From positions 3,830 to 67,829 of the forward strand of contig JAPOWB010000006.1 of the NCBI GenBank assembly GCA_026707815.1: 64,000 bases of DNA. Reading direction: 5' to 3'. Origin of the DNA: Candidatus Saccharimonadota bacterium (GTDB taxonomy: Bacteria > Patescibacteriota > Saccharimonadia > Saccharimonadales > VXPC01). Positions within the stretch are counted from its first letter, which is position 1, and every line of letters begins with the position of its first letter. The translations under genes and the position numbers were made by a program. Shown piece by piece: positions 23,083 through 46,020 of this stretch. The notes beneath the pieces were generated by a model, which was given only the letters and a program-made list of their open reading frames with translations, made no database searches and had not been told where the DNA came from.

Positions 23083-24126
23083 TTAAGGAACGGGGACATT
23101 TTCTCTGTCTAGACGATTATATCTTCGAGAAGAATGATCACAAGCCAAACCATCTTCAGTTTCTTGGCGGACTTGTTGAAGGATTCTCTGAGTTCTTTGG
23201 CTAACAGGAAACTCCCAATGATGTTTTTCTGTTAGCCAACCTGAACTAGAAGTGAAAGGATTGATTAACCCATATTGATGGGCATTACATTTGATCCAAT
23301 CAAGAGCTAAATTTCCGTCCTCACTGCATCTCCCTCCTTGATTTACAGACCACCACGTTCTGTTTTCGTCTAGACAAAATAAATCAAATCCCAGTCCAAG
23401 CTGATGTTTTGAGTAGCCGGGGGTAGTTAAGGGGGTAGGACAAGTTATATCAATAATGCCATGCTCTCTATCGGCTTGATCGTAATAGGCGTGCCGAGGC
23501 TGAAACTTATCACCAATTCTGACCTGTTCTAGACTATACGAGCCAAAACCAAGGGGATTGTTGTCAGTTTCGTTGAGCTGGCTGAGGTAGTATTGGACGC
23601 CTTGATATCGAAAAGAACATCTTCTATTCTCCATGGCTCGGAGCTCAACTTGTCGTTCTTGACTTCTCCAACCATCGGCATGAATACTGTATCGAGGTTG
23701 AACAATCTGATTTAAATCAGTAAGAAACTGTTGAATATTTTCCTCGACACAACGATGAGATCGACGAACTTCAACAGTTTTTCCATTTACAGAAAGATTG
23801 CTTGTTCGAATGAATTCACCATAAAAGTTTCTTTGATTAGAGTTATTATGAGCTTGAGGATTTGGAATATAGGAGAAGCCATTGACTCTCAAGTCTTCAA
23901 TAGAATCAGCCACACAATCACCAAAGGGTTCAGCTCGGCTAACAATGATGGGCTTTGAGGGGCTTGGTTGATAGATGCCATCTTCCCCACCTTCACTATC
24001 AGGTACATAGTAGGGAAAAACATATTGAATGGCTTTATTGTAGCTACTCTCTGCCCTAACCAAAGGGATGGTTATAGTAATCAGTATTAAACTAACGGCT
24101 AAACTGTGAATTAAGTTAATTTTCAT
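23083..24126 (-). CDS. Secreted peptidase M15 (VanY / D-Ala-D-Ala or L,D-carboxypeptidase-like) cell-wall hydrolase; last gene of the T4SS-like operon
   Basis: Signal peptide (SLAVSLILITITIPLVRAES). Motifs HADGWRSQERQ (SxxRSxxxQ-like), PGYSKHQLGLGFDLF (PGxSxHxxGxAxD) and EKHHWEF (ExWH) match the M15 zinc-peptidase signature. The protein is Cys-rich. Confidence 0.65.
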   Translation of the reverse strand: MKINLIHSLAVSLILITITIPLVRAESSYNKAIQYVFPYYVPDSEGGEDGIYQPSPSKPIIVSRAEPFGDCVADSIEDLRVNGFSYIPNPQAHNNSNQRNFYGEFIRTSNLSVNGKTVEVRRSHRCVEENIQQFLTDLNQIVQPRYSIHADGWRSQERQVELRAMENRRCSFRYQGVQYYLSQLNETDNNPLGFGSYSLEQVRIGDKFQPRHAYYDQADREHGIIDITCPTPLTTPGYSKHQLGLGFDLFCLDENRTWWSVNQGGRCSEDGNLALDWIKCNAHQYGLINPFTSSSGWLTEKHHWEFPVSQRTQRILQQVRQETEDGLACDHSSRRYNRLDRENVPVP

Positions 24127-27401: not shown

Positions 27402-29261
27402 TCAAGATTTTTGCGAGGATTGTTGAGGGGATTTTTGTTCTTGTAAAGCTAAAAGTTCATCAGGGGAAGTGGTGATTAAGTCTTGTTCCGATGGTGAAGC
27501 TAAAACCTGCATCTCGACATGTCTGCGTCCGGCAAAAAACAATCCTTGACCAACGGGGAATTGATTAAGAAGCTTCTTTTCATTTTGAGTTAATTTAAAA
27601 ACCTCGCTCAGCAGATCAATAGCTGTTGAAGATTGCTTTAAAAGTAATTGCATGCTGGAATTAGCGATGATTGACCGACCCAATCTAGAAGATGTGAAAT
27701 CTTCTACATCTTGAGTAATATTTGTAATCCCTAAATTATATTTTCTAGCCCTCTTAGTTAAGCCGAACATAAAATTTGCTGAATCCTCATATTTCATAAT
27801 TTGCCAAGCTTCGTCAACAATTAAAATACGTTTTCGCTTATCACTTCGAGTTTTGTTCCAGATATAATTTAAAACCATGTACATTCCGATAGGTCTAATT
27901 TCATCCTCTAAATCTCGAATATTAAAAACCACCAATTGATTATCTATTTTGACATTACTTTGCTGACTAAATAGTCCAGCAAAAGTGCCAGACATATATT
28001 TACGCAACCTTTGAGCCAGTTTTGGTCCACTACCGCCCATATGAGACAAAGTGTCATGGAGATCTGCCAATATTGGTGGCGGACTGCTATGAGTTAAGGG
28101 ATCTCTGGTAATACCAGCTTTGGCATAGGTGTCAATCAGAGCAACATCTAAATCAGCTTCTTCTGTTGGATTTAAAATAACCTGTATGCCAGCTGAGGTC
28201 TGCATACCTCCAAGCATTAGCCTCAACAAGCCATGCAGATCAATCAAATTATTCCTTAAAACATCTTCATCATCGTCATCATGCTCGACTTTTGGCAAAT
28301 CAAAAGGATTAATCCGACTTGGACTGGATAAACTGAGATTAATATATGTCCCGCCGACAGCCTCAGCCATTCTCTGGTATTCGTTTTCTGGATCAATAAT
28401 AATAACCTCAACCCCCAGCATCATTAATCTCAAAGCCTCCAGTTTGACAGCAAAACTTTTACCAGCTCCAGACTCGGATAGAACCACAGAATTACTATTT
28501 TCTAGACTAAATCTGTCAAAAATAACTAAACCTGAATTATGCAAATTAATGCCATATAAAATACCTCGATCCTGAGTTAAATTAGCGCTAGTGAAGGGAA
28601 AGGTGGTTCCTAAAGCCCCAGTATTCATATTGCGTCGAATCATTAATTGGTCTAAACCCAGAGGAGCAACAGAATTGAAAGCTTCTTCCTGTTGAGCCGA
28701 AGCCGGTTTGGAATAAATTAATTGACGATTCAGCAAGGCTTCAATTCTTTTGTGGTCTATTTCTAAGCCCTCCAAATCCTGAGCGTAGACTGTGTAGTAA
28801 AAACCAAATCTAAAGAATCTCTCTTCCCCCATTTGGAGTCGATCCCTCATATCTTCAGTGTCTAAAAGTTGAGCTTCTTTACCTGGGTCTCGGACTCGAC
28901 CCTTTTCTCTATCTAGGGTGATACTAGCTTCAAGCTGAGTAGTTTTACGCCTTAAATTTTTTAAAATTGTGGCTGTCTGAACTGGGTAAATATGCAGAGT
29001 AATATCCATAATTTGAGGCAGTGAAATCACCTGTCCCAACCAACCGCTATAAACCTCCCGGGGATAGCCGAAAACATAGGCGCTTCTAACATAACTAACC
29101 CCCATTCTGAAATAGGTGCTAAAAAATTCTAAACTTGGCGGGGCAATAAAATCCAGTAAACTAGTTATTCCCTGTTGATAAGCGGCTTGGACAGCCTGTT
29201 GTTCTTGAAGTCGCTTTTCTTCTATTAAGGCTTGGGGATCTTTAGGCTTAGATTTAAACAT
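27402..29261 (-). CDS. virB4: VirB4/TrbE/CagE-type T4SS ATPase (C-terminal two-thirds of a canonical VirB4)
   Basis: Walker A SESGAGKSF and Walker B RILIVDEAW. The upstream VirB4-typical region reads YVRSAYVFGYPREVYSGWLGQVISL...LHIYPV, and a TQDVEDF-like motif lies downstream. Confidence 0.85.
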   Translation of the reverse strand: MFKSKPKDPQALIEEKRLQEQQAVQAAYQQGITSLLDFIAPPSLEFFSTYFRMGVSYVRSAYVFGYPREVYSGWLGQVISLPQIMDITLHIYPVQTATILKNLRRKTTQLEASITLDREKGRVRDPGKEAQLLDTEDMRDRLQMGEERFFRFGFYYTVYAQDLEGLEIDHKRIEALLNRQLIYSKPASAQQEEAFNSVAPLGLDQLMIRRNMNTGALGTTFPFTSANLTQDRGILYGINLHNSGLVIFDRFSLENSNSVVLSESGAGKSFAVKLEALRLMMLGVEVIIIDPENEYQRMAEAVGGTYINLSLSSPSRINPFDLPKVEHDDDDEDVLRNNLIDLHGLLRLMLGGMQTSAGIQVILNPTEEADLDVALIDTYAKAGITRDPLTHSSPPPILADLHDTLSHMGGSGPKLAQRLRKYMSGTFAGLFSQQSNVKIDNQLVVFNIRDLEDEIRPIGMYMVLNYIWNKTRSDKRKRILIVDEAWQIMKYEDSANFMFGLTKRARKYNLGITNITQDVEDFTSSRLGRSIIANSSMQLLLKQSSTAIDLLSEVFKLTQNEKKLLNQFPVGQGLFFAGRRHVEMQVLASPSEQDLITTSPDELLALQEQKSPQQSSQKS

Positions 29262-30173: not shown

Positions 30174-30911
30174 TTATTTCTGTATTTTATTAATGATACT
30201 TTCTAAAACAGCGATTTTCAAATCTTTGGCTTCAGCTAATTTGGGAATCATGCCAAAAACTGGAGATGATTTTTGGCTGCTTTGGGCTTGTGGATCAAGG
30301 GTTGGTTGATCTGTCTGACTCAACTGTTGCTGTTTGACATTTGTCTTAATGCGAGATTTGTGGTTTTGATGATGATGATTTAAGAGACTATAAAAATGTT
30401 GATTAAGAGATAACTGTTGACGTTCATGTTCTTGGTCTACTGTGATGGTTTCAGAAGTTGCTAGGTTGCTTTGATGATTTAAAATGGATTGACCTCGACT
30501 ATCTAAAACTTCCGTAATATTCTGAATTTCTTGATTAGCTTGTTGAGCATCCAATTCTTTGCGGGGATCAGTAACAATCTTTTCAGAAGGGGTCTTTTTT
30601 TGAATGATAATTTCAGGCTGTCCCCCCTGAATCCACAGCCGAGTTTTAGATTTGAATAAGAAATTTAATTTAGCCAATAACCAAACTTCATTTGGTTGAT
30701 CTTGCCCCAAGGGTAAAGCCAGAAAAATAAGAGGTGCAGCAAATAAACTGAATAAGAACAAAAAGAAAAGATGCCCAAAGGTTGAGACTGATAAATAACC
30801 AACGAAGAGCAACCCACAGCCAATAAAGGCAAAGATAAATTGTTTCAGGCTTAACCGCCAAATTATCTTGTCTTCAGCTTCAATGTCTTGGAGGATTTTA
30901 TATGAGGCCAT
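30174..30911 (-). CDS. PrgI-family / VirB3-like small membrane protein
   Basis: The N-terminus YKILQDIEAEDKIIWRLSLKQFIFAFIGCGLLFVGYL is followed by a second TM segment. This matches the PrgI-family pattern (xIPxxIxxEDKIxxxLTxRQ + 2 TM). It sits upstream of VirB4, as VirB3 usually does. Confidence 0.55.
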   Translation of the reverse strand: MASYKILQDIEAEDKIIWRLSLKQFIFAFIGCGLLFVGYLSVSTFGHLFFLFLFSLFAAPLIFLALPLGQDQPNEVWLLAKLNFLFKSKTRLWIQGGQPEIIIQKKTPSEKIVTDPRKELDAQQANQEIQNITEVLDSRGQSILNHQSNLATSETITVDQEHERQQLSLNQHFYSLLNHHHQNHKSRIKTNVKQQQLSQTDQPTLDPQAQSSQKSSPVFGMIPKLAEAKDLKIAVLESIINKIQK

Positions 30912-30922: not shown

Positions 30923-31906
30923 TTATTGATTAGATTGTGGATTCTTGGAGTCAATCCCCCGACTTTCAAATAATTCCGTAACTTCTGGTTTGAGGTTGAC
31001 TCTAGCGACTGGCAAATCGACTATACTTTGGGCTCTATCTCTCATGCGGGTAGAGGGGTCATTGTCTAGGGCATTTTCCCAAGCACCTCTTGACCATTTT
31101 TGAGAATGGATTTCTGGTAACTGGAATAGAATATCAGTACCTAATCGCACTGATCCATCTTGTTGCCTGCTGGCGGTAGCTAAATCTGGGTCACTTTCAA
31201 GGAGAGATTCCCGCCATTTTTCAGAAGTCATAGCATCCGCCAATGTTTGTCTAGCAGCCGTGTTTTCGGGATGTGCAGTAGATTGAACCATGTTGCGAAT
31301 TATTGAAGTCTCTCCTCGCCTCATTAGTTCATTAACAGCCGCCAAGGATTGAGCTCTGGTTGCTTTAGTGCTGGTTGCAATATTTTCAAGCTGGCTGGCA
31401 TCCACATTGTAAGTACTTGCAGCAAGCTGTTGAGCTTCTTCTTGAAGGTGAATCTGATCGACCATATTTCTTGCTTGGGATCTTCCGTCGGCTCTATTAT
31501 GGCGCTTCTCTCTGCGACTTCCGGGAGAAGCTTCTTGTCTTCTTTGTCTTCTTCTAGTTCGCCAATCATGTATATTTTTCTGATCTCTAAATCGTCCTCC
31601 CTGCTCTAATCTTTTCAACTCCCCCCCTGCCTTATGGACGAGTTTTTGTAAAGGACCAGCTGTTCCTGCCATTAGTTGATGTTGACGCCTGATTCCACGA
31701 GCTATACCTTTATTCTTCATCCGATTTTTGCCAAATTCTCTCAACCTATTTCTTGGTCTATCTATTAAGCCCTTACTTCTATCATTAATAGTCCCCGTCA
31801 GTTGACCCAATAAACCACCAAATCGCTTAGCCATAAAGGGAATAGCCAAGAAAGCTCCAATATAGACAATTAAAGCCAACAATCGTTTAATGGGATCAAT
31901 TTCCAT
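30923..31906 (-). CDS. Single-TM, highly basic (Arg-rich) protein of unknown function, T4SS-like operon
   Basis: N-terminal TM (LLALIVYIGAFLAIPFMA), then R/K/Q-rich stretches (RTRRRQRRQEASPGSRREKRHNR). No family recognised. Confidence 0.4.
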   Translation of the reverse strand: MEIDPIKRLLALIVYIGAFLAIPFMAKRFGGLLGQLTGTINDRSKGLIDRPRNRLREFGKNRMKNKGIARGIRRQHQLMAGTAGPLQKLVHKAGGELKRLEQGGRFRDQKNIHDWRTRRRQRRQEASPGSRREKRHNRADGRSQARNMVDQIHLQEEAQQLAASTYNVDASQLENIATSTKATRAQSLAAVNELMRRGETSIIRNMVQSTAHPENTAARQTLADAMTSEKWRESLLESDPDLATASRQQDGSVRLGTDILFQLPEIHSQKWSRGAWENALDNDPSTRMRDRAQSIVDLPVARVNLKPEVTELFESRGIDSKNPQSNQ

Positions 31907-31946
31907 AATCTGTAACCTATTATATCATTGACATAAATTCCACCAC

Positions 31947-34328
31947 CTACCAATCAGTCTGAATAATTAACCAAGAAAAGAATTTACCAAAGGCAATAAT
32001 AGTGACAATTACTGGATATAAAAGTAATAAGTAGAAGAAGGTTTTAAAATAAAACCGCCAAGCCCGGTCATTGCCTGGCAAAATCCAAAGAGCTAAACCA
32101 ATAGGCCCAAAAACTAAAAGAGCAATTATAAGAATTTTTCTAAAGACCAAAAATAAATAAGCAATAAATAAGCCAATAGCCAAAGTAAACATCACGGGCA
32201 ACAAAAGAACCCACCCCCAGACTGCTCCACCTACTGCTATGATGGATAAGCCATCAGTCTCAATTCCACCACCACCCAGTATTTTATCCAGACCCCACCC
32301 CCTTAATTCAGTTGGGGCAATACCATAGATGATGCTTGCCATCAAATCGCCTAATTGAGTAAAACCTTGAATCATTAAATCTCCTAAAATCCATGAAAAT
32401 TGGATAAAGATAGTTCCAGCCACTAATTTTGGCAGATATTTTTTAACGGTATAATTTTTAAAAACACCAATATCAAAGGCAGTTGAAATAATCATAAACA
32501 GAGCCGTGCCAATAATGGCATAGGTGACAAAATCTCGCATAGTTGACCACAGCTCGTACAGATAATGTGGATCGTTGTCACCAGCTAGTTGATTATGATC
32601 GTCGTCAACAGCTGGTTGATTATATTTGCTGCTATCAATTCTTAAACTGTCTGTAGCCTGAGTTTCAGCCCAGTTTAAAATCCCAGTTGCCGCTTCCAGT
32701 AATGGACATATCACCCAGCTCAACCATCCAGCCAAAACTTCGCAATTTTGGGGGGCTGGATTTGAAGATGAAGAATTGCCTTGGACTACATTCTGACCAG
32801 AAACAGCAGTATCCCCTGTTGGGGATTCCAATACTATTACCACTAAAGTGCTTTTCTTGTTACCATTAGCTGGACCCTCGTCACACTTATCTTTCCAGTC
32901 TTGCCATATACCAAAACCAAAACCTTTATCAACAGCACTGCTGAAGGAGTTTTTTTCAATGAGAATACGACTGCCACATTTACGAACATTTTCCTCTGTA
33001 AGTTCTGTTAGATATTCCGTAAAAACATAAAAATCATCTGTGTCCATCTCACTATGCCTGTGATTGTGATTGGGGGATTTATAGGATTCTGTTTTCCTGC
33101 GATCCGACTCTGCATTGCATTCCCATTTATTTTCTGTACCATCTCTTCGCTCTAAATTATCGCCCCAAATCCCAGACATCGCCGTACCATCACATTTCCC
33201 CTCATCTTTAATTTGTTCTATAACGTCAGATTCCATGACATAATCCACTCTATCCAATCCTTGCTCGATGGGATCTATATCAATAATCGCTAAGCCATCG
33301 TTTTTATACGAGTACCTCTTGCAGGGGTCAGTATTGTGCGCATCATTATCTTGAACTATTCCACGTATTGGGTAAGTGGAATCATTTTCAAAATTTGTAA
33401 ACTCATCCTTATGAATAAGGATGCGATTACCACATTTATTAGTTCTCTGCTCTATGAAGACATAATAATTGTTGCTAGCGTCTTGTAGCTCATCAGATTT
33501 CGATGAATCATAGCCTTCAAAATGATCATACTCATCTGATATTCCCGGTAAGTATAATGCTTGATTGGCTTTGAAAAAATCATCATAACAAAACCATTGT
33601 CTGCTACCTGATTTCAACTCATCTCCGCCCTTACCCCATAAGATGACATTTCTGCAACTATTGCCCTCGGGTAGTTCATTCAAAGAATATTTATTCAATA
33701 AATGACTTGGCGGAGGCTGATTACCTTCTTCTGCGCCTATCCTGATAGTCTTTACTCGCAGTCCAATCTCGTTCTGTGTCACCACCCATTGGTATTCAGA
33801 GGGTGGATCAGTCCCACCATCACTAGTCTGAGTGTGGTTAGGTCCATCTTTGCAACTTGCTGACCAGTATATTAACTCTGCTTCGCGAGCGGAATTATTA
33901 TTGTTGTTAAAGACGTCTTGATTAACAGCTATGACATGCCCACAACCAAACTCGCCAAAAGCGTGAAAACCCAATTTGCCGGGAGTTCTTTCCAAAAAGA
34001 TATAGCTTTCTTGGGCAATGGCTTGAAAATCCCCATCTTCGTCATCTAAGGATATATATTTTTTAATATCATCATAGCAATCCCAGAGAGTATCGCCCTC
34101 AGTATTCGCAGTTGAAGATGTTGTTGAAGTCGGTGCTGAAGGCGGTCCAAAAAGCACAACTCCCATACATGAATCCCCATCGGGCGCTCTATTAAACCCA
34201 TATACTGGTATATCGTAAGCTGATACTGGGGTCGAGAAACAAAGACAGACTAAAATAAATATTAGAAGCCAACTTCCTAAAATTAACTGATTATTGACCC
34301 CCTGAATGCTTTTCAGAATATGATGCAT
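31947..34328 (-). CDS. VirB6/TrbL-like polytopic membrane protein with a large triplicated Cys-rich N-terminal ectodomain
   Basis: Signal or TM start, about 520 aa of extracytoplasmic sequence with three related modules, then about 6 TM helices in the last roughly 260 aa, as in VirB6/TrbL-type channel subunits. Confidence 0.6.
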   Translation of the reverse strand: MHHILKSIQGVNNQLILGSWLLIFILVCLCFSTPVSAYDIPVYGFNRAPDGDSCMGVVLFGPPSAPTSTTSSTANTEGDTLWDCYDDIKKYISLDDEDGDFQAIAQESYIFLERTPGKLGFHAFGEFGCGHVIAVNQDVFNNNNNSAREAELIYWSASCKDGPNHTQTSDGGTDPPSEYQWVVTQNEIGLRVKTIRIGAEEGNQPPPSHLLNKYSLNELPEGNSCRNVILWGKGGDELKSGSRQWFCYDDFFKANQALYLPGISDEYDHFEGYDSSKSDELQDASNNYYVFIEQRTNKCGNRILIHKDEFTNFENDSTYPIRGIVQDNDAHNTDPCKRYSYKNDGLAIIDIDPIEQGLDRVDYVMESDVIEQIKDEGKCDGTAMSGIWGDNLERRDGTENKWECNAESDRRKTESYKSPNHNHRHSEMDTDDFYVFTEYLTELTEENVRKCGSRILIEKNSFSSAVDKGFGFGIWQDWKDKCDEGPANGNKKSTLVVIVLESPTGDTAVSGQNVVQGNSSSSNPAPQNCEVLAGWLSWVICPLLEAATGILNWAETQATDSLRIDSSKYNQPAVDDDHNQLAGDNDPHYLYELWSTMRDFVTYAIIGTALFMIISTAFDIGVFKNYTVKKYLPKLVAGTIFIQFSWILGDLMIQGFTQLGDLMASIIYGIAPTELRGWGLDKILGGGGIETDGLSIIAVGGAVWGWVLLLPVMFTLAIGLFIAYLFLVFRKILIIALLVFGPIGLALWILPGNDRAWRFYFKTFFYLLLLYPVIVTIIAFGKFFSWLIIQTDW

Positions 34329-34411
34329 CGTCTGTTTTCTATTTTTTATTTAACATAAACTGCTAAGTTTATTATAACTACTTTAAGATATTTAATAAAT
34401 TAGATTCTTAA

Positions 34412-34440
34412 TTGATAAATAGAGTCTTGAGTATTATAAT
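34412..34440 (+). promoter_or_regulatory. Candidate sigma-70-type promoter for the pilin-like operon
   Basis: TTGATA (34412-34417), a 17-nt spacer, then TATAAT (34435-34440), about 125 nt upstream of the ATG at 34567 in the divergent intergenic region. Confidence 0.4.
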
Positions 34441-34566
34441 TTGACTTAAATAGCAAGATATTGTCTTATCATAAAATAAATAGCTATGTTGCAAGTTTTC
34501 AAAAAGGTTATTTCTTTAATTTACCCAGAGTACCATGCTAAAGGGGAGATTTACATAGGCAAGTAG

Positions 34567-35754
34567 ATGATTACGAAATTAAGTTTTCATTCTCGGATTG
34601 TATTTTGGGGATCGCTAATCATCCTTGTAATTATTAGTCAGCTATCTTTTGGTATAGTCATGGCTGATTCTTTCAATTCTTTAATTTCAGGCACAGAAGA
34701 TGATTCCCCAACAATTACTATAACCAGTGCATCTACTGGGTTGGTAGACACGATAAAAAAGTGGGAATATAAAGTTCTACATGGCAATCAACCACGAGCA
34801 GTTTGTAAAGAACCCGAAACAAGGCATGTTATCGGTGGAGGCCGCATCGCAACTCTTTGGCAACTCGGCTGGCGAGAGGGTAGACAATACGCAAAGACTT
34901 TAGGGGATGCTGGAAAAGTACTTTGTTTTAGGGGCGAATTTTCTGACAGTCGACTTGGCAGACGAAGCTATCATTATAAAGGAGTGTATCTCGATCCTCT
35001 AAAAACTAGTGAATTAAGTTCTGAGTCTCAAGAAGGGGATTCTGCGATTTCGGTAGACCAAGATACGATCACAATCGAAACCAAATTTCAAGGGGGAGGG
35101 CTTGGTAGGTCTCCGACTCCAATTATCAATTCTGATACTTGGGTGCGACGGATAATCCCCCGAACCACCACTTGTGATGGCTTTGTTTTTTTAAAATACA
35201 CGCGACCAAGCCCCCTTCATCCCATCCCAGCTACTTGGCGACATGCCTGGACTGATTACTCCGGTTCAAGCTATACAATTCCCAAATCGGAATATAATAA
35301 AAACATCAGAATATGTTTTGCTGGTCAATATCTTAATAAAGAGGACAAATGGCATTTTAAACATCACGATGAATTTTATCGTGATCCTGCTTCGAATTTC
35401 CGGTCTTATGAATTTGATCGTGCTAATTCGAATTCCCAGCCTTCTAGTAGTGGGGGTTCCAGCAATCGCAATGTTGATCCGACAGTTGATAGCACTTGCG
35501 AAGACATTAATAATAATTGCCAAGCCTTAGAAACGCTAAATAGTATTCTTAACTATATGGCTATCATTATTTTTCCGATTACCATCATCATGATTATTGT
35601 TGGAGGTATCCAATATTCAATTGCTCGGGATAATCCCGAGGCTGTGGCTTCAGCTAGATCTCGAATTTACAAGGCAGTTTTAGCTTTAATTCTTCTAATT
35701 AGTTTGTGGACATTTTTGCAGTGGTTAATTCCGGGTGGAATTTTGGGAGGTTAA
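34567..35754 (+). CDS. T4SS pilin-like protein with a roughly 330-aa N-terminal ectodomain (internal 2x Cys-containing repeat)
   Basis: N-terminal TM or signal segment. The C-terminal module IIFPITIIMIIVGGIQYSIARDNPEAVASARSRIYKAVLALILLISLWTFLQWL is homologous to the module in the four downstream genes. Confidence 0.55.
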   Translation: MITKLSFHSRIVFWGSLIILVIISQLSFGIVMADSFNSLISGTEDDSPTITITSASTGLVDTIKKWEYKVLHGNQPRAVCKEPETRHVIGGGRIATLWQLGWREGRQYAKTLGDAGKVLCFRGEFSDSRLGRRSYHYKGVYLDPLKTSELSSESQEGDSAISVDQDTITIETKFQGGGLGRSPTPIINSDTWVRRIIPRTTTCDGFVFLKYTRPSPLHPIPATWRHAWTDYSGSSYTIPKSEYNKNIRICFAGQYLNKEDKWHFKHHDEFYRDPASNFRSYEFDRANSNSQPSSSGGSSNRNVDPTVDSTCEDINNNCQALETLNSILNYMAIIIFPITIIMIIVGGIQYSIARDNPEAVASARSRIYKAVLALILLISLWTFLQWLIPGGILGG

Positions 35755-35759
35755 TAAGA

Positions 35760-36230
35760 ATGAAGCGACATTTTTTTCAAATTTTTTGCTTAATTATCAG
35801 CTTACTGAGTTTGTCAGCAGTTTTTAGTCCCTCCGTCGAAGCTAATAGGCACATACCCGATAATTGCCAAGGTCGATCGTTATTGGGTATTCCTTCATGG
35901 GATCGAGGCATATGTTTGGATGAACAGGAGGAATTGTCAGAGTTTTTAGCAGCTAATCGGACTGAAATTTTAGCCACCAATATTATAGTTATTTTAGTCT
36001 CTATCGCTGGCTTAGTGGCGGTGGCTTTTATAATAGTTGGCGGCTTTCTATATGTCTTGGCTTCAGGCAATTCTGAAAAAGCTAAAAATGCTCGGCAAAC
36101 AATCATCCATGCTTTGGTTGGTTTGGTGATTGCCATTATGGCTAGAGTGGTAGCTGAAGTTGTTTGGAGAAACTTAACTGCTGATAATCCACCCAGCCTA
36201 GAAACAGCTTATTTATTAATGAGGTTATAA
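35760..36230 (+). CDS. T4SS pilin-like protein (TrbC/VirB2-type membrane hairpin)
   Basis: I moved the start to the ATG at 35760, with GGGAGG 10 nt upstream. The signal peptide is MKRHFFQIFCLIISLLSLSAVFSPSVEA and there is a Cys pair. The module reads VAFIIVGGFLYVLASGNSEKAKNARQTIIHALVGLVIAIMA. Confidence 0.6.
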   Translation: MKRHFFQIFCLIISLLSLSAVFSPSVEANRHIPDNCQGRSLLGIPSWDRGICLDEQEELSEFLAANRTEILATNIIVILVSIAGLVAVAFIIVGGFLYVLASGNSEKAKNARQTIIHALVGLVIAIMARVVAEVVWRNLTADNPPSLETAYLLMRL

Positions 36231-36784
36231 TGTTTGCTCCATTATTTTCGGTTTTAAGGGCGAATATTGAAATTAATAATTCAGATATTCCCGCCATTCC
36301 CAAGCCTGCTGATCAAACCATTTTGGAAGGTACTCTAAATTTAGTTTTTATAGTTTTGGGAAGCATCAGTTTATTAATTCTGGTGATTCAGGGCATGAAA
36401 TATGCCCTATCTTTAGGTAACTCCGAGCAAGTCAATAGAGCCCGCAATGGCATTATCTATTCCTTGGTTGGGTTAACTGTTGCTACGACAGCTTGGTCTT
36501 TAGTGACCTTTACCTTAGACAGTGTTACTGGACCAGAGACTGTAAATGGTCAGACGTCATCAATAGTTAATTTGCTGGCTAATATTTCTGGTTATTTAAT
36601 TTTTATCACTGCCATTATTTCAATCATTGTCGTTATTATTGGCGGTTTTCAGCTGGTTTTCTCGGAAGGTAATTCCGAGCAAGCTAAAAAAGCTCGGAGT
36701 ACCATCATCTATGCTGTAATTGGTTTACTAATAGCAATCATTGCTGGACCAGTTTTAAAATTTTTCTTTGGTTTTTTTGAATAA
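36230..36784 (+). CDS. T4SS pilin-like protein with two tandem pilin modules
   Basis: Two copies are present: LILVIQGMKYALSLGNSEQVNRARNGIIYSLVGLTVATTA and VIIGGFQLVFSEGNSEQAKKARSTIIYAVIGLLIAIIA. The start overlaps the previous stop (TAATG). Confidence 0.6.
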   Translation: MFAPLFSVLRANIEINNSDIPAIPKPADQTILEGTLNLVFIVLGSISLLILVIQGMKYALSLGNSEQVNRARNGIIYSLVGLTVATTAWSLVTFTLDSVTGPETVNGQTSSIVNLLANISGYLIFITAIISIIVVIIGGFQLVFSEGNSEQAKKARSTIIYAVIGLLIAIIAGPVLKFFFGFFE

Positions 36785-36929
36785 CTTTTGATTTTTTAAC
36801 TGCTACTAGATTAATTATGAGCTACCCTTTAAAAGTCAAAGTTTTAAAATTAAATTTGAGATGGACTTGTAATTGTTAATTGCTATTTTTTATGGTAAAA
36901 TATATTTGACTAATTTAAACAAACAAAAG

Positions 36930-37334
36930 ATGTCAAAGCTTACAATTTTGTCCTTTATTTCTGCTGTGATTTGCTTATTGGTGATTTCTTTAGCTAATCC
37001 TGTTTTGGCAGCTGTCGATTGTGATAACTTACCCCCTCTTAGCGAACTCGCCCCAGCTGAACAAGCCGAGGCGGCTCTCTGCCCTGTAATTGGTAATGAT
37101 ACTGAGACCACAACAGTGCCTGAAATTATTCAAATTATTATTGGGATATTATCTTGGGTGATAGGAATCGCATCTGTGATTGTCATCTTAGTCCAAGGTT
37201 TAAGGCTAATTTTATCCGGAGGTAATTCTCAAACTGCCACCGAAGCTAGAAATGGCATCATTTACGCTCTGGTTGGTCTGGCAGTGGCTATTTCAGCGGC
37301 TATTCTTGTTAGGTATATAGTTGATCAACTTTAA
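36930..37334 (+). CDS. T4SS pilin-like protein
   Basis: I moved the start to the ATG at 36930 (MSKLTILSFISAVICLLVISLANPVLA signal peptide). It has a Cys pair and the module ILVQGLRLILSGGNSQTATEARNGIIYALVGLAVAISA. Confidence 0.6.
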   Translation: MSKLTILSFISAVICLLVISLANPVLAAVDCDNLPPLSELAPAEQAEAALCPVIGNDTETTTVPEIIQIIIGILSWVIGIASVIVILVQGLRLILSGGNSQTATEARNGIIYALVGLAVAISAAILVRYIVDQL

Positions 37335-37409
37335 GGCTTATCTGTCTTTAAGAGGGTTCTCTGGCTTGGGATTTTACTCACTCACCTTAAAGTGTTATAA
37401 TTTGCAATT

Positions 37410-37928
37410 ATGAGTCCAATAAAAATCTTGTCTTTGAATTTAATTTATTTATATAAATCAACCAGTAGATTATTGATAATAGGTTCGGTGAGTTTGTTAT
37501 TTCTTGTTGGCATTCAAATAGCTATTTTTAATCAATCTGCTCATGCATCATGCAGCATAATTACTCATACGACTGAATCTGCTTGTGAAGCTGCCGATGG
37601 TACATGGACAGAACCAGCTTCCACGACCAATTCTATTCAGGGAGGGGTTCAGGAAGGGATAGTGACTGCTGGGGGCGACAACAATGTCAATGCCGAAGAA
37701 TCTTTGAAGGAGACAGTTAATGATATTATTAGTATTCTCGGCTGGATTGTTGGGATTGTTTCAGTTTTAATGTTGATTTATGCAGGTCTGCGTTACATTG
37801 TTTCTGGTGGTTCGGAAAAAGGAGTGACCGCTGCCAAAAAGACCATTATCTATGCTGTTATTGGTTTAGTGGTTGTCTTGCTTTCTCAAACTCTGGTTAG
37901 ATATATTTTTGATCAATTTCTCGACTAA
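37410..37928 (+). CDS. T4SS pilin-like protein
   Basis: Signal-like N-terminus ending AHA, the Cys pair CSIITHTTESAC, and the module LMLIYAGLRYIVSGGSEKGVTAAKKTIIYAVIGLVVVLLS. Confidence 0.55.
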   Translation: MSPIKILSLNLIYLYKSTSRLLIIGSVSLLFLVGIQIAIFNQSAHASCSIITHTTESACEAADGTWTEPASTTNSIQGGVQEGIVTAGGDNNVNAEESLKETVNDIISILGWIVGIVSVLMLIYAGLRYIVSGGSEKGVTAAKKTIIYAVIGLVVVLLSQTLVRYIFDQFLD

Positions 37929-39373: not shown

Positions 39374-39450
39374 GTACCCGTAGCTCAGCTGGATAGAGCG
39401 TTGGTTTGCGGTACCAGAGGTCACAGGTTCAAATCCTGTCGGGTACGCCA
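39374..39450 (+). tRNA. tRNA-Arg (GCG anticodon)
   Basis: Acceptor GTACCCG/CGGGTAC, D arm GTAGCTCAGCTGGATAGAG (identical to the remembered E. coli tRNA-Arg D arm, with A20). Anticodon stem TTGGT/ACCAG with loop TTGCGGT (U33, G34-C35-G36, G37). T arm ACAGG-TTCAAAT-CCTGT and encoded CCA. Confidence 0.85.
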
Positions 39451-40318
39451 GAACGAATGCTATGGAACTTACTCTTACTTTTTAACTGTTTCACCTCTGT
39501 TAATTCTGAATTTAAACTGGTTCCACCTACATTTTTTAAAACATCTTCCGCTTTGATCAAAAACAGTGAATTTACCCCCGTTAAACTAGTGGTTCCACCA
39601 ACTAATTCTCTATAAGTTGGTAATCTATGGAAAAGTAATCCAAAAAGCTTAGCCTTCATGAAATTATCTAGCTTATTGTTGGCAAAATCTCCCAAATGAC
39701 TCATCAAATGTTGAATCTTTATCTTCAATTTACTTAGGTCTGGCATCCTTTCAGAAGACAAAGCTTGCTTCTCATTTTTAAGTTTTGCAATCGCTACTTC
39801 TAGACTAGATATGTCTTGTTCCAGAGATTTAATAGTTGATTCGTTGCTTAAAAGTTTAATTTTAGCAATATAAGACTGCAATTCTAGCTCTAAATTAGTG
39901 ATTTGCTTTTCAAAACTAACCACTTTATTTTGATGCCCAGCTTGAACCGCATTAAAAGATTCCTCTAAAACTTCAAAGATCTGCTCCATTTTTTGGGGAG
40001 ATAGTCGCAATTTAGATACAAAACTATCTACAGTAGCTTCTAAATCTTTTTTACTCACTCTAAAACTGTGATTTTTACCCCTGCTACAATGATAAGCAGG
40101 ATAATATTTACCACTTCTGCCCCTAGAAGCACTGCCTAATAATGGCTTATGACAATCTGGACATAAAAAAATTTCTTATAAGGATATTCGTGGCTACGCT
40201 TACCTTTATCTGTGTGGCGAACATCTTTAAAATCTTTAACTTCAATCGCTCCATCTTCTTTTTCAAGAATAACTCTACTGCCTCTATTGACCTTATTAAA
40301 CAAATGTATCAACTGCAA
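39429..40318 (-). pseudogene. Large serine recombinase-like gene, N-terminally truncated and frameshifted
   Basis: Two ORFs (40318-40136 and 40058-39429) join through a frame change at an A7/T7 run (40165-40171). The restored reading ...YPYKKFLCPDCHKPLLGSASRGRSGKYYPAYHCSRGKNHSFRVSKKDLE... is a zinc-ribbon motif followed by a coiled coil, as in the C-terminal half of large serine recombinases. No catalytic N-terminal domain is present. Confidence 0.6.
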
Positions 40319-40791
40319 TGAATAAATTCCACTTCTTTCATTATGTCGAGAGGATATCTTTTGCAGTCAATGTTTAATTTTAAACAAACATCAGGAATTT
40401 TCATTTGAGGTTGGTCCTTTCTGCGTCTACTTTCATAACTTAAAATAGATAGGGAATATTCTTGAGCATAAGCAATCATATGAGTATCAGCTATAGATCT
40501 GCTGTTACCAACATTATCTTTAGTAATCATTTTGAATCTTTTATTGATTTCTTGAGCTTGATCAATAATATTCTCATTAACTGCTTTAATCAGTTTTTGC
40601 TTTCTTAAATCAGTAATCCACTCCTTTAATCGTGATGGATATTTGCATTCATTCGCTATAGAATCAATTAATACAATTTGACCTTTTTCAATCTTATCTC
40701 TTAAATCTTGCCAAAAATTCTTGTGATAATCATGGGGACAAAAATTAGCAAAATAAATCAAAATATTAGCATCTATTAGATAAGATCTCAT
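40309..40791 (-). CDS. DUF4411 (PIN-like nuclease fold) protein; putative toxin/effector
   Basis: MRSYLIDANILIYFANFCPHDYHKNFWQDL...IADTHMIAYAQEYSLSILSYE...KIPDVCLKLNIDC matches the remembered DUF4411 pattern (YLLDANVFI...FW..L / ADP.lIA.A / kIPdvC). Confidence 0.7.
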   Translation of the reverse strand: MRSYLIDANILIYFANFCPHDYHKNFWQDLRDKIEKGQIVLIDSIANECKYPSRLKEWITDLRKQKLIKAVNENIIDQAQEINKRFKMITKDNVGNSRSIADTHMIAYAQEYSLSILSYESRRRKDQPQMKIPDVCLKLNIDCKRYPLDIMKEVEFIHCS

Positions 40792-40794
40792 GGC

Positions 40795-41925
40795 TTAAAA
40801 ACTCCCCAGTGGTAAACGTAATAATTTCTGAGTCTCTGAAGCACTTAATCTATTATCTAAATGTAGTGAAAAAATATATTCATTAAACAAAGATCCATTG
40901 CCAGATTTAATAGATGCATGGGGCGAAAACCCCCGTCTATCACTGCCTCGAAATGATTTTTTATTTTCCAAATTCTGCTGTATCTCAGATTTAAAGAAAT
41001 TCTCCAATCCATTTAAATCACTATAATTAATTTTCTTGAGATCTTTTAGTCTATAAAAGCAAGCAAGACTGCTAACTTGAAATTTTTTAGCTAAATCCTT
41101 GATGCCTTCAACATTTTCATACACCAATTGAGGTATTTCTGATTTGGGCATTAAGAAGTGAGCAGCTACTTGATTACAAAAAATCTCCTCTTTATCTTTA
41201 ATTTGATCAAATTGCCTAAAATCGATACTGTCCAAACTATCTTCTGCTCTAAACAGGTGGACTAGTTCGTGGGCTAGAGTAAATAATTGACCTGTTGAAG
41301 AATCTTCTCTATTCAATGCTATCAAAGGAGCATATTGATCATTAATATATATACCCCTCATTTCTGCTAAATCTATCTTCTCATTTCTTAAAACCGTGTT
41401 TTTGAAAACAAAAATATATTGTTTTTCTAGCAGTTCTCTTAAGTGAGCTGGAGCTTTTTTATTATTTAAATCTTTAATACGATAACCAATTTTACTTGTT
41501 ATAAATTTAGCTAGAGATTCTGCATCCTTATAATTGCAACCAGAACCTACTAAGTTATTACTAGATGTTTTATCAAATAGCATATTGTAACGAATAATAC
41601 TCTGTCTAGTCTTTAATAAACTAATAAATCGCTTTAGGTAATAGCTTTCTTCAATCTTTGTACTACGATATGCTGGAATAGTCTTAGAAATTTCTAGATT
41701 TTCTTTCATTAGAAGGTGAAAAGGTGAAATATTATAAATATCAGCTAATTTTTCTAACTGTTTATAACTCGGAGATTTATCTGTAATATTACCCGCTTCC
41801 CATAAAGCAACTTTGTCTTTCTTGGTTTTTGGATTAATTTTATGAGTAGCTTCTTGAGTAGATAAATCCATATTTTCCCTAGCAATTTTTAAGTTACTAA
41901 AATTAATATCTTGACGCCAACTCAT
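40795..41925 (-). CDS. XRE-type HTH fused to an ImmA/IrrE (M78, COG2856) zinc metallopeptidase; putative antitoxin/sensor-regulator
   Basis: N-terminal HTH (LSTQEATHKIN...ALWEAGN...SYKQLEKLADIYNISPFHLL) and an HExxH motif in FTLAHELVHLF. It lies 3 nt upstream of the DUF4411 gene. Confidence 0.75.
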   Translation of the reverse strand: MSWRQDINFSNLKIARENMDLSTQEATHKINPKTKKDKVALWEAGNITDKSPSYKQLEKLADIYNISPFHLLMKENLEISKTIPAYRSTKIEESYYLKRFISLLKTRQSIIRYNMLFDKTSSNNLVGSGCNYKDAESLAKFITSKIGYRIKDLNNKKAPAHLRELLEKQYIFVFKNTVLRNEKIDLAEMRGIYINDQYAPLIALNREDSSTGQLFTLAHELVHLFRAEDSLDSIDFRQFDQIKDKEEIFCNQVAAHFLMPKSEIPQLVYENVEGIKDLAKKFQVSSLACFYRLKDLKKINYSDLNGLENFFKSEIQQNLENKKSFRGSDRRGFSPHASIKSGNGSLFNEYIFSLHLDNRLSASETQKLLRLPLGSF

Positions 41926-41973
41926 ATTCTTCAGTCCTTAATTAAGTTTAATTCTAACATTGGATTAAATCTC

Positions 41974-42357
41974 TTACACAAAAAAGAGGTCTGAACACAG
42001 CATTTTCAATATGCGAACCTTTTCCTCTTTATTGGCTTGCTCATACAGATAAGATGACTGGTTTACCATCTCAATTAAATCAATGGTTTGATTATGGTAA
42101 TTATTCGATGATTTATTTATGTTATCTAACCGTTGCTCAAGTTGATTAATCCTCGACATCTCACTATTCGGACTTTTCGAATATTTAATTTTAGCCCAGT
42201 TTTTATTTTTTAATCTAATGTCAAAAAACTTTTTGTGAAATTCATGCAATATATCTTCTCGAGTCCATATTGCCCCAAAAATTGCATGAGATTCTGTAAA
42301 CTTTCTTGGGCTGAATGGATATGATATATCGTGGATGCTCAGAATGTGTTTATTCAA
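41974..42357 (-). CDS. Hypothetical protein (TTG start); C-terminus faintly recombinase-tail-like, possibly a gene fragment
   Basis: Coiled-coil stretch plus the ending YLYEQANKEEKVRILKMLCSDLFFV, reminiscent of large-serine-recombinase C-terminal tails. This is weak. Confidence 0.3.
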   Translation of the reverse strand: MNKHILSIHDISYPFSPRKFTESHAIFGAIWTREDILHEFHKKFFDIRLKNKNWAKIKYSKSPNSEMSRINQLEQRLDNINKSSNNYHNQTIDLIEMVNQSSYLYEQANKEEKVRILKMLCSDLFFV

Positions 42358-42755
42358 TTGATTAATTGATAAATGCTTTTTTGAACTTTGAAAATTGCTT
42401 CGGAGTTTTGTTGATTATCTTGGTAGTTAGCAGGATTTTCTATGTAAATCTGGTTGAGGCATATTTCTCTCAATATTGAAAATTCGTTTTCGGTTAACTC
42501 TAATTTTATCTTTGAGGATTGTTTATTTCTCTGTCCATCCTCCAAATCTCTAATTTTTGAGATAAGATTTTCTGTTATTAGCCTCCAATTTGTCTCGGCA
42601 TATTTTTTGTTGCCTGATTTTTGATGATATTTAAATCCCATAACATCAACCTGATTTTTAACATAGGCAATGATAATCTTAGCAGTTGCATCGTCCAATT
42701 CTAACAATTTTGTTTTACCTGATGACTTATATTTTTTCTTAAACAATTGAATCAT
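42354..42755 (-). CDS. Hypothetical protein (133 aa), no recognisable domain
   Basis: ORF only. It overlaps the downstream ORF by 4 nt (TTGA). Confidence 0.3.
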   Translation of the reverse strand: MIQLFKKKYKSSGKTKLLELDDATAKIIIAYVKNQVDVMGFKYHQKSGNKKYAETNWRLITENLISKIRDLEDGQRNKQSSKIKLELTENEFSILREICLNQIYIENPANYQDNQQNSEAIFKVQKSIYQLIN

Positions 42756-42842
42756 CTTCTTTCTTTATTTGTCATCTTATCATTTAATCTCCAAACAATC
42801 TATATGCAGACTTCCATTGGATCATTCATACAATATTGAAAA

Positions 42843-44696
42843 TTAGATAGCTTCTGGTTGAGAATTATTTACTGTATTAGTTGGTCTTGTAGAACCACCG
42901 CTTAGACATCGACCATTGTCTGCTCTAATCTTGGTTGTGTCATGACAGCCATAAGGATTAAGTCGAATCTTTTCTATAACACTTAAATTTGCCCAATTAG
43001 CTGGCAAGACAACATCCGTCTCAGTGGTTGGCGTTGGATCCACTTCAGGGGGTTGTTGTGAATCTTCAGCTTCTGGTTGAGAATTATTTACTGTATTAGT
43101 TGGTCTTGTAGAACCACCGCTTAGACATCGACCATTGTCTGCTCTAATCTTGGTTGTGTCATGACAGCCATAAGGATTAAGTCGAATCTTTTCTATAACA
43201 CTTAAATTTGCCCAATTAGCTGGCAAGACAACATCCGTCTCAGTGGTTGGCGTTGGATCCACTTCAGGGGGTTGTTGTGAATCTTCAGCTTCTGGTTGAG
43301 AATTATTTACTGTATTTTCAGCCTCATCATTTTCATCATCAATCTCTGCTGATTCACTTATGTTGGACTCATCTTCTAAAACATTAGTCAAACCTTTAAC
43401 TTTAAAAGTTAATTTTATGGGTTGACCTCTTAAATATCGAGCATCCCCCTCAAGGAGCATAAAAGACTGGGTAATAGAAGCCGCTAATTCGGGGATAGTT
43501 AAAAAGAATTCGAAATTAGCCTCGGCTTGAGGGGCTACTGAATTTTCTTTCAAAACAATGCTCTTAGGGCATGCAGATTGCGTTGTTGGGGCAGTTTGGC
43601 AAATATGATTTTGATAACCATCAGCTTTGTAAGGGACTAAAGATACTTGTTGCTGATCTGAGACTTGATGCCAAGCCTGATTAGAAGTATTCGTGAATGC
43701 CACAGAAATATAGACCTGCTTTTGGGGGTCTACTGGAGTAGTTTCTAAATCAATCTCAGTTGTTTTGGTGAAATCAGTATAAACTGCCAGAGTTTTTAAT
43801 TTAAATTCATCACCAGTCTCTTCTTCAACCTCAGTAGTAGAAGTTCGGCTTGAGCCAAACCAATGATTGAAGTATGTCCAGAAATTCCGATTACCATAAC
43901 TGCTACAAGCATCTCCTTCACCATAAAAATTATCTAAAGCAGCTTGATTGGGTAAATAGGGAGTGTATAGGTATAAAGCTACTGTGGCTTCATTTTTTAA
44001 ATTTAAAACTGTAGAACCACAATTTCTATTGGGATGATAGTAAATAGTGTTATCACCTAGGCTATACCACCAATCATCCAAATTATCTAAATAATGTCGC
44101 AACTGCCAAGCCAGTCCATTAATTTGATTAATAAAACCCAAAGTTTTGCTATTGCAATCCGCATGATCAGGGCAACCATAACCGGTTGCTTTAGAGAATT
44201 GCCTTGGCCAAGGCCAGGTATCCGTTAATAAGCTTTGTTCCTTTTGTAAAACAGCTAATAAGACCTGAGGATTTATTTTATAAGTTTGAGCTGCTTGATA
44301 GATGATTTGAGCGGATGATTGTCCACCCTCAATATTAGTTGGGTCACCATTTTCATCAAATAAACCATAGTTATCTGCCCCAGTCTCGGGATTTTGCTGA
44401 TATTCCGCTAAACAAGTATAGGGAGGTATGGGTAGAGCTGCGTAGATGTTTTCATGATGATGTTCACAACCTCCGACTGAAGCTAAAGTTTCATTCAAGA
44501 AAGCTTGAATGTCTTCAGTTGTCATAGTTTCATAATCGGTAAAAACCTCATTATCAATAATATGTCCAGCATTAAACTGAGAAGTATCCAAATTAGCAGA
44601 CAAAGCACTCACTGAGCTCGAATTCAAGCTAATGAAACTAATCAACAAGAGGCTAATCAAACTTAGCCAAGATAAAGAAATAGTTCTATGATACAT
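42843..44696 (-). CDS. Secreted protein of a conserved family (possible cell-wall/glycan-active), with C-terminal 73-aa perfect tandem repeats
   Basis: Signal peptide. The N-terminal 300 aa carry motifs I recognise from a widespread secreted-protein family: FNAGHIIDNEVF...IQAFLN, SAQIIYQAAQTYKINPQVLLAVLQKEQSLLTD, GYGCPD, YLYTPYLPNQAAL, CSSYGNRNFW..F..WFG. The C-terminus holds 2.1 copies of a 73-aa unit. Confidence 0.6.
   Translation of the reverse strand: MYHRTISLSWLSLISLLLISFISLNSSSVSALSANLDTSQFNAGHIIDNEVFTDYETMTTEDIQAFLNETLASVGGCEHHHENIYAALPIPPYTCLAEYQQNPETGADNYGLFDENGDPTNIEGGQSSAQIIYQAAQTYKINPQVLLAVLQKEQSLLTDTWPWPRQFSKATGYGCPDHADCNSKTLGFINQINGLAWQLRHYLDNLDDWWYSLGDNTIYYHPNRNCGSTVLNLKNEATVALYLYTPYLPNQAALDNFYGEGDACSSYGNRNFWTYFNHWFGSSRTSTTEVEEETGDEFKLKTLAVYTDFTKTTEIDLETTPVDPQKQVYISVAFTNTSNQAWHQVSDQQQVSLVPYKADGYQNHICQTAPTTQSACPKSIVLKENSVAPQAEANFEFFLTIPELAASITQSFMLLEGDARYLRGQPIKLTFKVKGLTNVLEDESNISESAEIDDENDEAENTVNNSQPEAEDSQQPPEVDPTPTTETDVVLPANWANLSVIEKIRLNPYGCHDTTKIRADNGRCLSGGSTRPTNTVNNSQPEAEDSQQPPEVDPTPTTETDVVLPANWANLSVIEKIRLNPYGCHDTTKIRADNGRCLSGGSTRPTNTVNNSQPEAI
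42849..43316. repeat. Perfect 219-bp tandem repeat, 2.14 copies, in-frame within the CDS 42843-44696
   Basis: Unit starts at 42849, 43068 and 43287 were located by matching AGCTTCTGGTTGAGAATTATTTACTGTATT. Copies 1 and 2 read identically base for base. Copy 3 is the first 30 nt only. Confidence 0.95.
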
Positions 44697-45644: not shown

Positions 45645-45736
<92 letters not shown>

Positions 45737-45924
45737 TCTAATTACTGTATATTTTAATTCAAAACTCTGAAAAATCTATATAGATTAAAACATATTCTAA
45801 CTAAGAGATTCTACCATTAAATTTAATTTTTCATCAAATCAGTGTTAATATCTCGCTATCTTATGATGCTTTAATTTATAAATATTGTTAATATAAGCTT
45901 ATTGTCAATAAGTCATTCATCGTT

Positions 45925-46020
<96 letters not shown>

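Follow-up and report, generated by a model that had tools for sequence, protein, structure and literature searches.

What do two closely spaced minus-strand genes do on a contig of a Candidatus Saccharimonadota bacterium (GenBank assembly GCA_026707815.1, contig JAPOWB010000006.1, positions 3,830 to 67,829; this whole stretch of 64,000 nucleotides is hereafter the window), where their products are currently labelled ‘ImmA/IrrE family metallo-endopeptidase’ and ‘DUF4411 family protein’? An initial annotation made from the sequence alone had read the encoded 376-aa and 160-aa proteins as a candidate toxin–antitoxin (TA) or defence module, with a DUF4411 effector and a partner combining a helix-turn-helix (HTH) domain with an M78 peptidase. 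This reading was borne out by the domains of both proteins, by a match of the larger one to models of RmrA, the antitoxin of RosmerTA systems (E = 1e-14), and by the pairing of the two genes in every related locus examined. We consider it likely that the two genes are a type II TA module of the VapBC52/Rosmer-like class, brought into the Saccharibacteria chromosome on a small, now-decayed integrase-bearing island beside a tRNA-Arg gene.

The layout of the locus was read from the list of open reading frames (ORFs) and from the sequence itself (coordinates in Table 1). The ORF for the 376-aa protein comes first and that for the 160-aa protein follows on the same strand after a gap of 3 nt, the junction reading TTT TAA GCC ATG; the upstream gene is translationally coupled to the toxin gene downstream. 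The motifs quoted in the initial annotation were all present, AHELVHLF at residues 218–225 of the larger protein and YLIDANILIY and KIPDVC at residues 4–13 and 131–136 of the smaller. The pair is single-copy within the window, identical proteins are annotated in the Candidatus Saccharibacteria metagenome-assembled genome (MAG) GCA_026706615.1, and both ORFs are intact, and identical or nearly so, on contigs from at least six samples.

The smaller protein is, from its sequence and predicted structure, a PIN-fold nuclease in which all four catalytic acidic residues are intact. It matched Pfam DUF4411 (E = 6.8e-24, 84.9 bits, cut-off 23.5) and the PHROG family phrog_11126 (5e-18), with a sub-threshold match to the Pfam PIN family PF01850 (3.6e-4, 21.6 bits, cut-off 23.6). 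Residues D7, E48, D102 and E120 are invariant in 68 toxin homologues, as are I132, P133 and V135 of the KIPDVC motif, D134 and C136 being kept in at least 90%. An AlphaFold2 (AF2) model with a mean predicted local distance difference test score (pLDDT) of 96.3 adopts an alpha/beta/alpha PIN fold, and the best Foldseek matches of that model were VapC toxins (VapC2, VapC11, VapC21 and P. horikoshii VapC4; probability 1.0), so the PIN-like fold that had been anticipated for this protein stands. The likeness to canonical VapBC pairs lies in this toxin, a PIN-fold protein of the Mg-dependent RNase type. Canonical VapB antitoxins are 8–13 kDa proteins of the ribbon-helix-helix, AbrB or Phd type that form 2:2 or 4:4 complexes (PMC13273310), whereas the partner here is a 376-aa multidomain peptidase and the PF01850 score of the toxin falls below its cut-off.

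That partner matched Pfam Peptidase_M78 (E = 1.6e-16, 60.7 bits, cut-off 22), which, together with the DUF4411 match, upholds both family assignments made at the outset, with scores well outside what chance would give. Among PADLOC models, capP (E = 9e-17) and seven RmrA models matched, the best RmrA model aligning residues 8–300 with profile positions 11–294 of 380 and the second giving E = 1.8e-14; the PHROG family phrog_2439 was matched over the full length (E = 1.7e-37). In an alignment of 63 antitoxin homologues, comprising close and mid-distance relatives, H219 and E220 of the HExxH motif are invariant and H223 is kept in 62, while E247 and N251 of the ExxCN motif are invariant and C250 is kept in 62. 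The AF2 model (pLDDT 88.8, predicted template modelling score 0.87) has CapP (7t5t), PprI bound to single-stranded DNA (ssDNA; 8sln) and IrrE (3dti) as its top Foldseek matches, and its middle domain also matches PrpR. Of the two elements initially ascribed to this protein, the HExxH peptidase core was found directly, whereas the Xre-type HTH was not detected by Pfam in the single sequence at E ≤ 0.1 and emerged from profiles and predicted structure. The 63-homologue profile matches Xre-type HTH structures (2mez, 1.7e-6; ICEBs1 ImmR 7t8i, 1.2e-4; C.Csp231I, 9e-4), the N-terminal domain of the model aligns with the DNA-binding domains of SinR, NHTF and BldD (Foldseek; template modelling score on the target 0.6–0.8, probability 0.97–1.0), and several homologues carry precomputed PF01381, PF12844 or PF13560 matches (HTH_3, HTH_31, HTH_19). 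The presence of an Xre-type HTH is thus supported indirectly, at the level of profile and predicted structure.

Both proteins matched the two chains of PDB 9vzy, a ‘HTH cro/C1-type domain-containing protein’ of 393 aa and a ‘DUF4411 family protein’ of 162 aa, and the toxin also matched 9vzz, the DUF4411 protein alone; these are the structures of VapBC52 (Rv2515c/Rv2514c) of Mycobacterium tuberculosis (Nucleic Acids Res., June 2026; PMC13273310). The 63-sequence antitoxin profile aligned with VapB52 (9vzy_A) at E = 7e-52, profile positions 7–363 falling on chain positions 2–369 and taking in the GGNxY motif region, and an 8-sequence toxin profile aligned with VapC52 (9vzy_D/9vzz_A) at E = 2.6e-10. 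Judged by these alignments, both proteins are full-length homologues of VapB52 and VapC52, a link that rests on sequence profiles. The two loci share their families and gene order (an HTH–IrrE/M78 antitoxin of about 380 aa upstream, a DUF4411 PIN toxin of about 160 aa downstream), the HExxH motif with its Glu ligand, an [F/Y]R linker with an invariant Arg, a C-terminal helical domain and an intact PIN acidic tetrad. They differ in that the sequences are very distant, the linker has Tyr-Arg here and Phe-Arg in VapB52, the switch-loop Cys of VapB52 is Asp here, and the host belongs to an episymbiotic lineage of the candidate phyla radiation (CPR) rather than the actinobacteria, with the locus on a decayed integrase island by a tRNA gene.

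The initial annotation knew of no experimental work on this pairing, but such work exists. The fusion of COG2856 with Xre linked with PIN toxins was predicted in 2009, with Rv2515c named (PMC2701414), and DUF4411.1 downstream of HTH–DUF955 fusions was described in 2017 (PMC5499597). Rv2514c was found toxic and was rescued by Rv2515c in 2019 (PMC6504116), and structures and a mechanism followed in 2026 (PMC13273310). The two predictions of a ‘three-component’ Xre–COG2856(DUF955)–PIN system describe exactly the arrangement found here, DUF4411.1 after a fused HTH–DUF955 protein, but were purely computational and settled neither the identity of the toxin nor the interactions among the components. 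The pair is a new, distant CPR member of this family, for which prediction (2009) was followed by validation as a TA system (2019) and by structural and mechanistic characterisation (2026).

What is established for VapBC52 suggests how the pair might work. VapC52 is a PIN-fold tRNase inactivated by D6A, and VapB52 is a three-domain antitoxin: its N-terminal HTH-like domain is needed for toxin binding, the middle one is a peptidase of the IrrE type that combines HExxH and a Glu ligand with a ‘cysteine switch loop’ (Cys229) and an HTH motif, and its C-terminal helical domain covers the PIN active site in a complex of 1:2 stoichiometry (PMC13273310). The switch Cys sits 13 residues past the first His and caps the zinc in the resting state; ssDNA sets off an HExxH-dependent self-cleavage of VapB52 that removes the N-terminal domain, a linker ‘FR’ being the proposed cut site (PMC13273310). 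At the corresponding place the protein in the window has A85-Y86-R87, and in the profile alignment the family consensus ‘pdfR’ lines up with the ‘RDFR’ of VapB52. R87 is invariant in the 63 homologues, and column 86 holds F in 40, Y in 22 and L in one, i.e. F or Y in 62; the invariance of the linker Arg across such distant homologues supports a role of the ‘FR’ motif as cleavage or recognition site. The antitoxin model has only two low-confidence spots, the linker at residues 81–90 (mean pLDDT 54) and the loop at residues 231–240 (pLDDT below 50 at residues 232–234), and these are the positions of the proposed cleavage site and the switch loop.

By homology with VapB52, the N-terminal HTH domain would serve in both toxin binding and DNA binding, and the C-terminal helical domain would occlude the toxin active site. 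In the resting state one antitoxin would bind a toxin dimer (1:2), the N-terminal domain holding the toxin and the C-terminal domain blocking the nuclease site, and the HTH probably has a further role in autoregulation of the operon. The peptidase would then cut its own linker near Y86-R87 in response to a stress signal, for which ssDNA or DNA fragments arising from phage infection or DNA damage are the likeliest candidates. The complex would fall apart, and the freed PIN toxin could cleave host and/or phage tRNAs so that translation stops and the infection aborts or the cell arrests. These steps are modelled on VapBC52, the homologue studied by experiment (PMC13273310).

The initial annotation had staked its reading on the two genes co-occurring in other genomes, and they do: each of the 13 independent loci (L007–L019), with toxin homologues of 25–61% identity, has an M78-family gene of 362–389 aa directly upstream in the same orientation, these being loci examined rather than a census. 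In one of them (L009, from an assembly with 3x coverage) the upstream gene is present only as a frameshifted remnant in five pieces (605–1765), and the frameshifts may be sequencing errors. The pair is flanked by the HsdS and HsdR genes of a type I restriction–modification (R-M) system on one metagenome contig (L019, 2856–4501) and directly after HsdR in a type I R-M operon of a Sedimenticola MAG (L018, 2818–4489); elsewhere it stands beside Mrr, SIR2-like, AAA_15/21, HigB and Panacea genes (L011), beside a DUF4011 helicase, DUF3800, Fic and a DNA methylase (L008), or beside MrcB_N/NucS_C (L010). Several of the 13 contexts look like defence islands, and the order of the pair is kept across unrelated contexts, including integrase-free ones.

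Relatives of the two proteins proved easy to find. Word-index searches returned 8, then 501, relatives of the DUF4411 protein and 189 of the M78 protein, and a related-locus search with the 8-sequence toxin alignment gave one genome locus and two metagenome loci. An exhaustive profile search found 7,163 DUF4411 cluster representatives at E ≤ 1e-3 and 3,692 at E ≤ 1e-10, numbers that mark DUF4411 as a common family. The nearest named relatives of the pair come largely from CPR/Patescibacteria MAGs, and the DUF4411 family has thousands of members; the initial view that the presence of the pair in a tiny genome is notable finds no support here. Two of the related loci hold a further gene of one of these families: a second DUF4411 fragment 4 kb away in L009 (6177–6350) and a second, more distant M78-family gene on the opposite strand in L010 (3960–5006).

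Could the HTH-peptidase instead be a switch of the ImmA/ImmR or CapP/CapH type, that is, a repressor/anti-repressor of a mobile element that senses DNA damage and controls the integrase or other genes, with the DUF4411 protein as an accessory nuclease? The M78 domain does belong to the ImmA/IrrE/CapP family: CapP/CapH, IrrE(PprI)/DdrO and ImmA/ImmR have in common with it a peptidase fold that contains an internal HTH motif, and their peptidases respond to DNA damage or ssDNA by becoming active (PMC13273310). The N-terminal domain resembles ICEBs1 ImmR, as the profile match to 7t8i indicates, and the order of the pair and the integrase remnant directly downstream of it recalls that of immR-immA-int in ICEBs1 (PMC10440598, and general knowledge). 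But the CapP, IrrE and ImmA proteases cleave a separate repressor (CapH, DdrO or ImmR) and thereby turn transcription on, whereas in the present protein substrate domain and peptidase form one chain and the output would be the release of a bound toxin. The neighbours of the pair are a truncated integrase and two unassignable ORFs, with no adjacent CBASS (cyclic-oligonucleotide-based antiphage signalling system) or other effector operon, no SOS-like regulon and no separate repressor gene. Moreover, the pair moves as a unit in contexts without an integrase, its same-strand arrangement 3 nt apart is a typical TA operon layout, and the antitoxin is a homologue, from end to end and with the toxin-occluding C-terminal domain included, of VapB52, a protein that neutralises its DUF4411 partner by physical contact. 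We regard such a regulatory switch as highly improbable.

The TA reading also has to be set against the second half of the name given to it. RosmerTA was reportedly among the anti-phage systems of Millman et al. (2022). RosmerTA (RmrT/RmrA) anti-phage systems were treated by Ernits et al. in 2023, and in the NetFlax network of that study an ImmA/Rosmer antitoxin node is paired with PIN-like toxins (PMC10440598). The likeness is in the two-gene TA layout and in an antitoxin of about 360–400 aa, composed of an HTH and an M78 Zn-peptidase, that fits the RmrA models nearly end to end; the validated Rosmer toxins, by contrast, are of unknown function or membrane-depolarising and are not PIN nucleases (PMC10440598).

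A number of observations weigh against a VapBC52/Rosmer-like TA module. The toxin has no match to any PADLOC model at E ≤ 0.1, RmrT included, so that of the initial ‘Rosmer-like’ label the antitoxin part holds and formal Rosmer membership does not. Single-sequence E values against VapB52 and VapC52 are weak (6e-10 and 9e-4, respectively), the link being strong only at profile level. The anti-phage activity of VapBC52, in which overexpressed VapC52 cuts tRNAs of phage D29 and gives phage resistance in M. smegmatis, is known only from such toxin overexpression (PMC13273310). Generic sigma-70 and terminator scans showed no enrichment over shuffled sequence and gave no convincing promoter or operator; the 48-nt region upstream of the antitoxin gene is a weak candidate for one, and because the scans match the level of shuffled sequence we claim neither element. 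No close toxin homologue was found by tblastn among 50,697 phage genome records. Finally, the column of VapB52 Cys229 holds Asp here, and its composition in the 63 homologues is S29 D17 F13 T2 E1 L1, with Cys in none; with the switch Cys absent, the activation mechanism may differ from that of VapBC52.

This last point, read from the alignments, is the one real deviation of the 376-aa antitoxin from the published VapB52 model: the cysteine switch is absent. The only cysteines of the protein are C130, C250 and C289, with none between the HExxH and ExxCN motifs (residues 224–246), and the loop in place of the switch, D229-S-L-D232-S-I-D235, is acidic/polar and disordered. The ‘cysteine switch’ is therefore not general in the family, and the published activation model cannot be the whole story. 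One could imagine that the antitoxins of this clade, many of them from CPR/Patescibacteria, lost or never had the switch of VapB52 and CapP and are gated otherwise, for example by an Asp ‘switch’ on the zinc, and perhaps triggered by something else than ssDNA, a phage protein for instance; we think this unlikely. Dependence on imported nucleic acids is a generally assumed trait of Saccharibacteria, and routine DNA uptake is a further, speculative candidate signal for these antitoxins.

That this particular clade is phage-borne was also considered and dropped, the phage searches having returned no toxin matches and only weak or partial antitoxin matches; PHROG families for both proteins do exist.

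How did the module reach this chromosome, and does it serve the host or itself? The pair sits in a 3.4-kb low-GC segment (39451–42842; GC 0.309 versus 0.364 for the window) that borders a tRNA-Arg gene. The toxin gene is followed directly by what is left of a large serine integrase, a C-terminal piece that matches phrog_95 (integrase; E = 3.5e-15, profile positions 363–519 of 651) and Pfam Zn_ribbon_recom (7e-3) and has a CPDC...YHC zinc ribbon but none of the catalytic N-terminal domains; its 3' end and the tRNA gene overlap in antisense. In the window the remnant is frameshifted into ORFs of 60 and 209 aa by a single-base indel in a T-run at about 40172, a split also found on the sister contigs L001, L005 and L006, whereas L002–L004 keep an intact ORF of 291–296 aa. 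Recombinase debris had initially been placed on both sides of the pair, and this was upheld downstream and rejected upstream. The two upstream ORFs (41974..42357 and 42354..42755) showed no recombinase similarity in Pfam, NCBIfam, PADLOC or PHROGs, nor in tblastn with a full-length Patescibacteria serine recombinase, BLASTP against the downstream remnant or tblastn against plasmids, and had no detectable relatives in those searches. No att-like direct repeats of the tRNA-Arg 3' end were found delimiting the island, and its borders are therefore set by GC and gene content only.

This setting brings in a different role for the same module, selfish addiction, in which the pair stabilises the small integrated island or itself and the peptidase merely tunes antitoxin turnover. 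A low-GC segment (0.31 versus 0.36) by a tRNA gene with an integrase remnant would suit such a role, and decay of the integrase next to a TA pair that remains intact and unvarying is the pattern expected of an addictive module. The window also has no recognisable defence genes directly beside the pair, and the neighbours gave no CBASS or other PADLOC system matches. Against such a role, relatives occupy typical defence-island settings (within type I R-M operons or next to Mrr, SIR2, AAA_15/21 and Panacea genes), the antitoxin fits the Rosmer RmrA and CapP defence models, and the homologous system gave phage resistance, though with overexpressed toxin only. Addiction as the main role seems to us rather doubtful, and the addiction and defence roles are not mutually exclusive.

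Variation between strains bears on whether the pair works at all. Between the two strain types (the window versus L002–L004) the antitoxin gene has seven nonsynonymous changes (M19I, S94G, S109N, F117L, C130R, T143I and P159L) and two synonymous ones, all within residues 19–159, counts too few for a test although the asymmetry is noteworthy; its C-terminal two-thirds are identical, and the toxin gene has no differences, being 100% identical in all sister contigs. The seven nonsynonymous against two synonymous changes, the truncated and frameshifted integrase next door and the want of a convincing promoter could be taken as signs of a non-functional relic, intact-looking ORFs on a decaying island whose expression or activity is gone. 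Yet both ORFs have kept their full length and all of their catalytic and motif residues, the toxin does not vary, and a free active toxin without a working antitoxin would be counter-selected, so that the joint integrity of the pair argues for function; a relic is barely credible to us.

For annotation, the pair can now be named a VapBC52-like (Rosmer-like) TA pair with a specific, testable mechanism. The locus is a further data point indicating that reduced CPR genomes retain self-contained abortive-infection/TA modules gained on small integrative islands, and it does not overturn current understanding.

Table 1. Positions in the window of the gene pair, its predicted domains and residues, and the elements around it.
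Feature	Position	Strand	Description or basis
Putative antitoxin/sensor gene, VapB52-like/RmrA-like	40795..41925	-	N-terminal Xre-type HTH, linker, IrrE/ImmA M78 Zn-peptidase with internal HTH motif, C-terminal helical domain
Predicted N-terminal HTH domain, residues ~3–71	41713..41919	-	model helices 3–6, 9–18, 23–30, 38–43, 54–64, 68–71
Y86-R87, counterpart of the VapB52 ‘FR motif’ (proposed self-cleavage site, linker between N-terminal and middle domains)	41665..41670	-	alignment
HELVH zinc-binding/catalytic motif, H219 E220 H223	41257..41271	-	direct sequence reading
D232, at the VapB52 ‘cysteine switch’ (C229) position	41230..41232	-	pairwise and profile alignments agree
E247, predicted third zinc ligand (ExxCN motif)	41185..41187	-	aligns with VapB52 E245
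Predicted C-terminal helical domain, residues ~301–376	40798..41025	-	model helices 301–325, 335–343, 345–356, 362–369
Putative toxin gene, DUF4411-type PIN-like nuclease, VapC52-like	40309..40791	-	acidic residues D7, E48, D102, E120 and KIPDVC motif
48-nt upstream intergenic region, weak candidate promoter/operator	41926..41973	-	AAGGA ribosome-binding site and TGTTAGAAT extended -10-like element
C-terminal remnant (third) of large serine integrase	39429..40318	-	Zn ribbon and coiled coil; directly downstream of toxin gene
tRNA-Arg(gcg) bordering the low-GC segment	39374..39450	+	ARAGORN

Several features of the window lie outside the pair and its island. An ATPase with AAA_14 and DUF4143 domains is encoded on the plus strand at 47272–48399, about 5 kb from the pair, and an AAA_14 ATPase also adjoins the pair in L007 (6727–8142); this recurrence may be coincidence. 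Farther off, at 23083–37928, is a Gram-positive-type type IV secretion system (T4SS) cluster with a VanY-like peptidase (23083..24126), a TraG/VirB4-like ATPase (27402..29261), a PrgI family protein (30174..30911), a TrbL-like protein of 793 aa (31947..34328) and five consecutive T4SS_pilin paralogues (34567–37928). The first of these five tandem paralogues (ORF 34567..35754, T4SS_pilin-like, 395 aa) looks hypervariable between strains: two variants that are otherwise about 99% identical differ by 61 substitutions and small indels across 34500–35500, compared with at most 12 substitutions per 500 nt elsewhere outside a gapped tandem-repeat region at 43.0–43.5 kb.

A perfect 219-nt tandem repeat of two full copies plus 30 nt (42849–43316) lies inside a minus-strand ORF (42843..44696), where it encodes a 73-aa repeat in a 617-aa protein without Pfam matches. 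Sister contigs carry versions of 544 aa (one repeat fewer), 617 aa, or broken or gapped ones, which indicates copy-number variation or assembly collapse between strains. Finally, divergent tRNA-Ser(tga) and tRNA-Ser(gct) genes at 45645–46017 have identical 3' (acceptor/T-arm) ends that form a perfect 29-nt inverted repeat, 315 nt apart.

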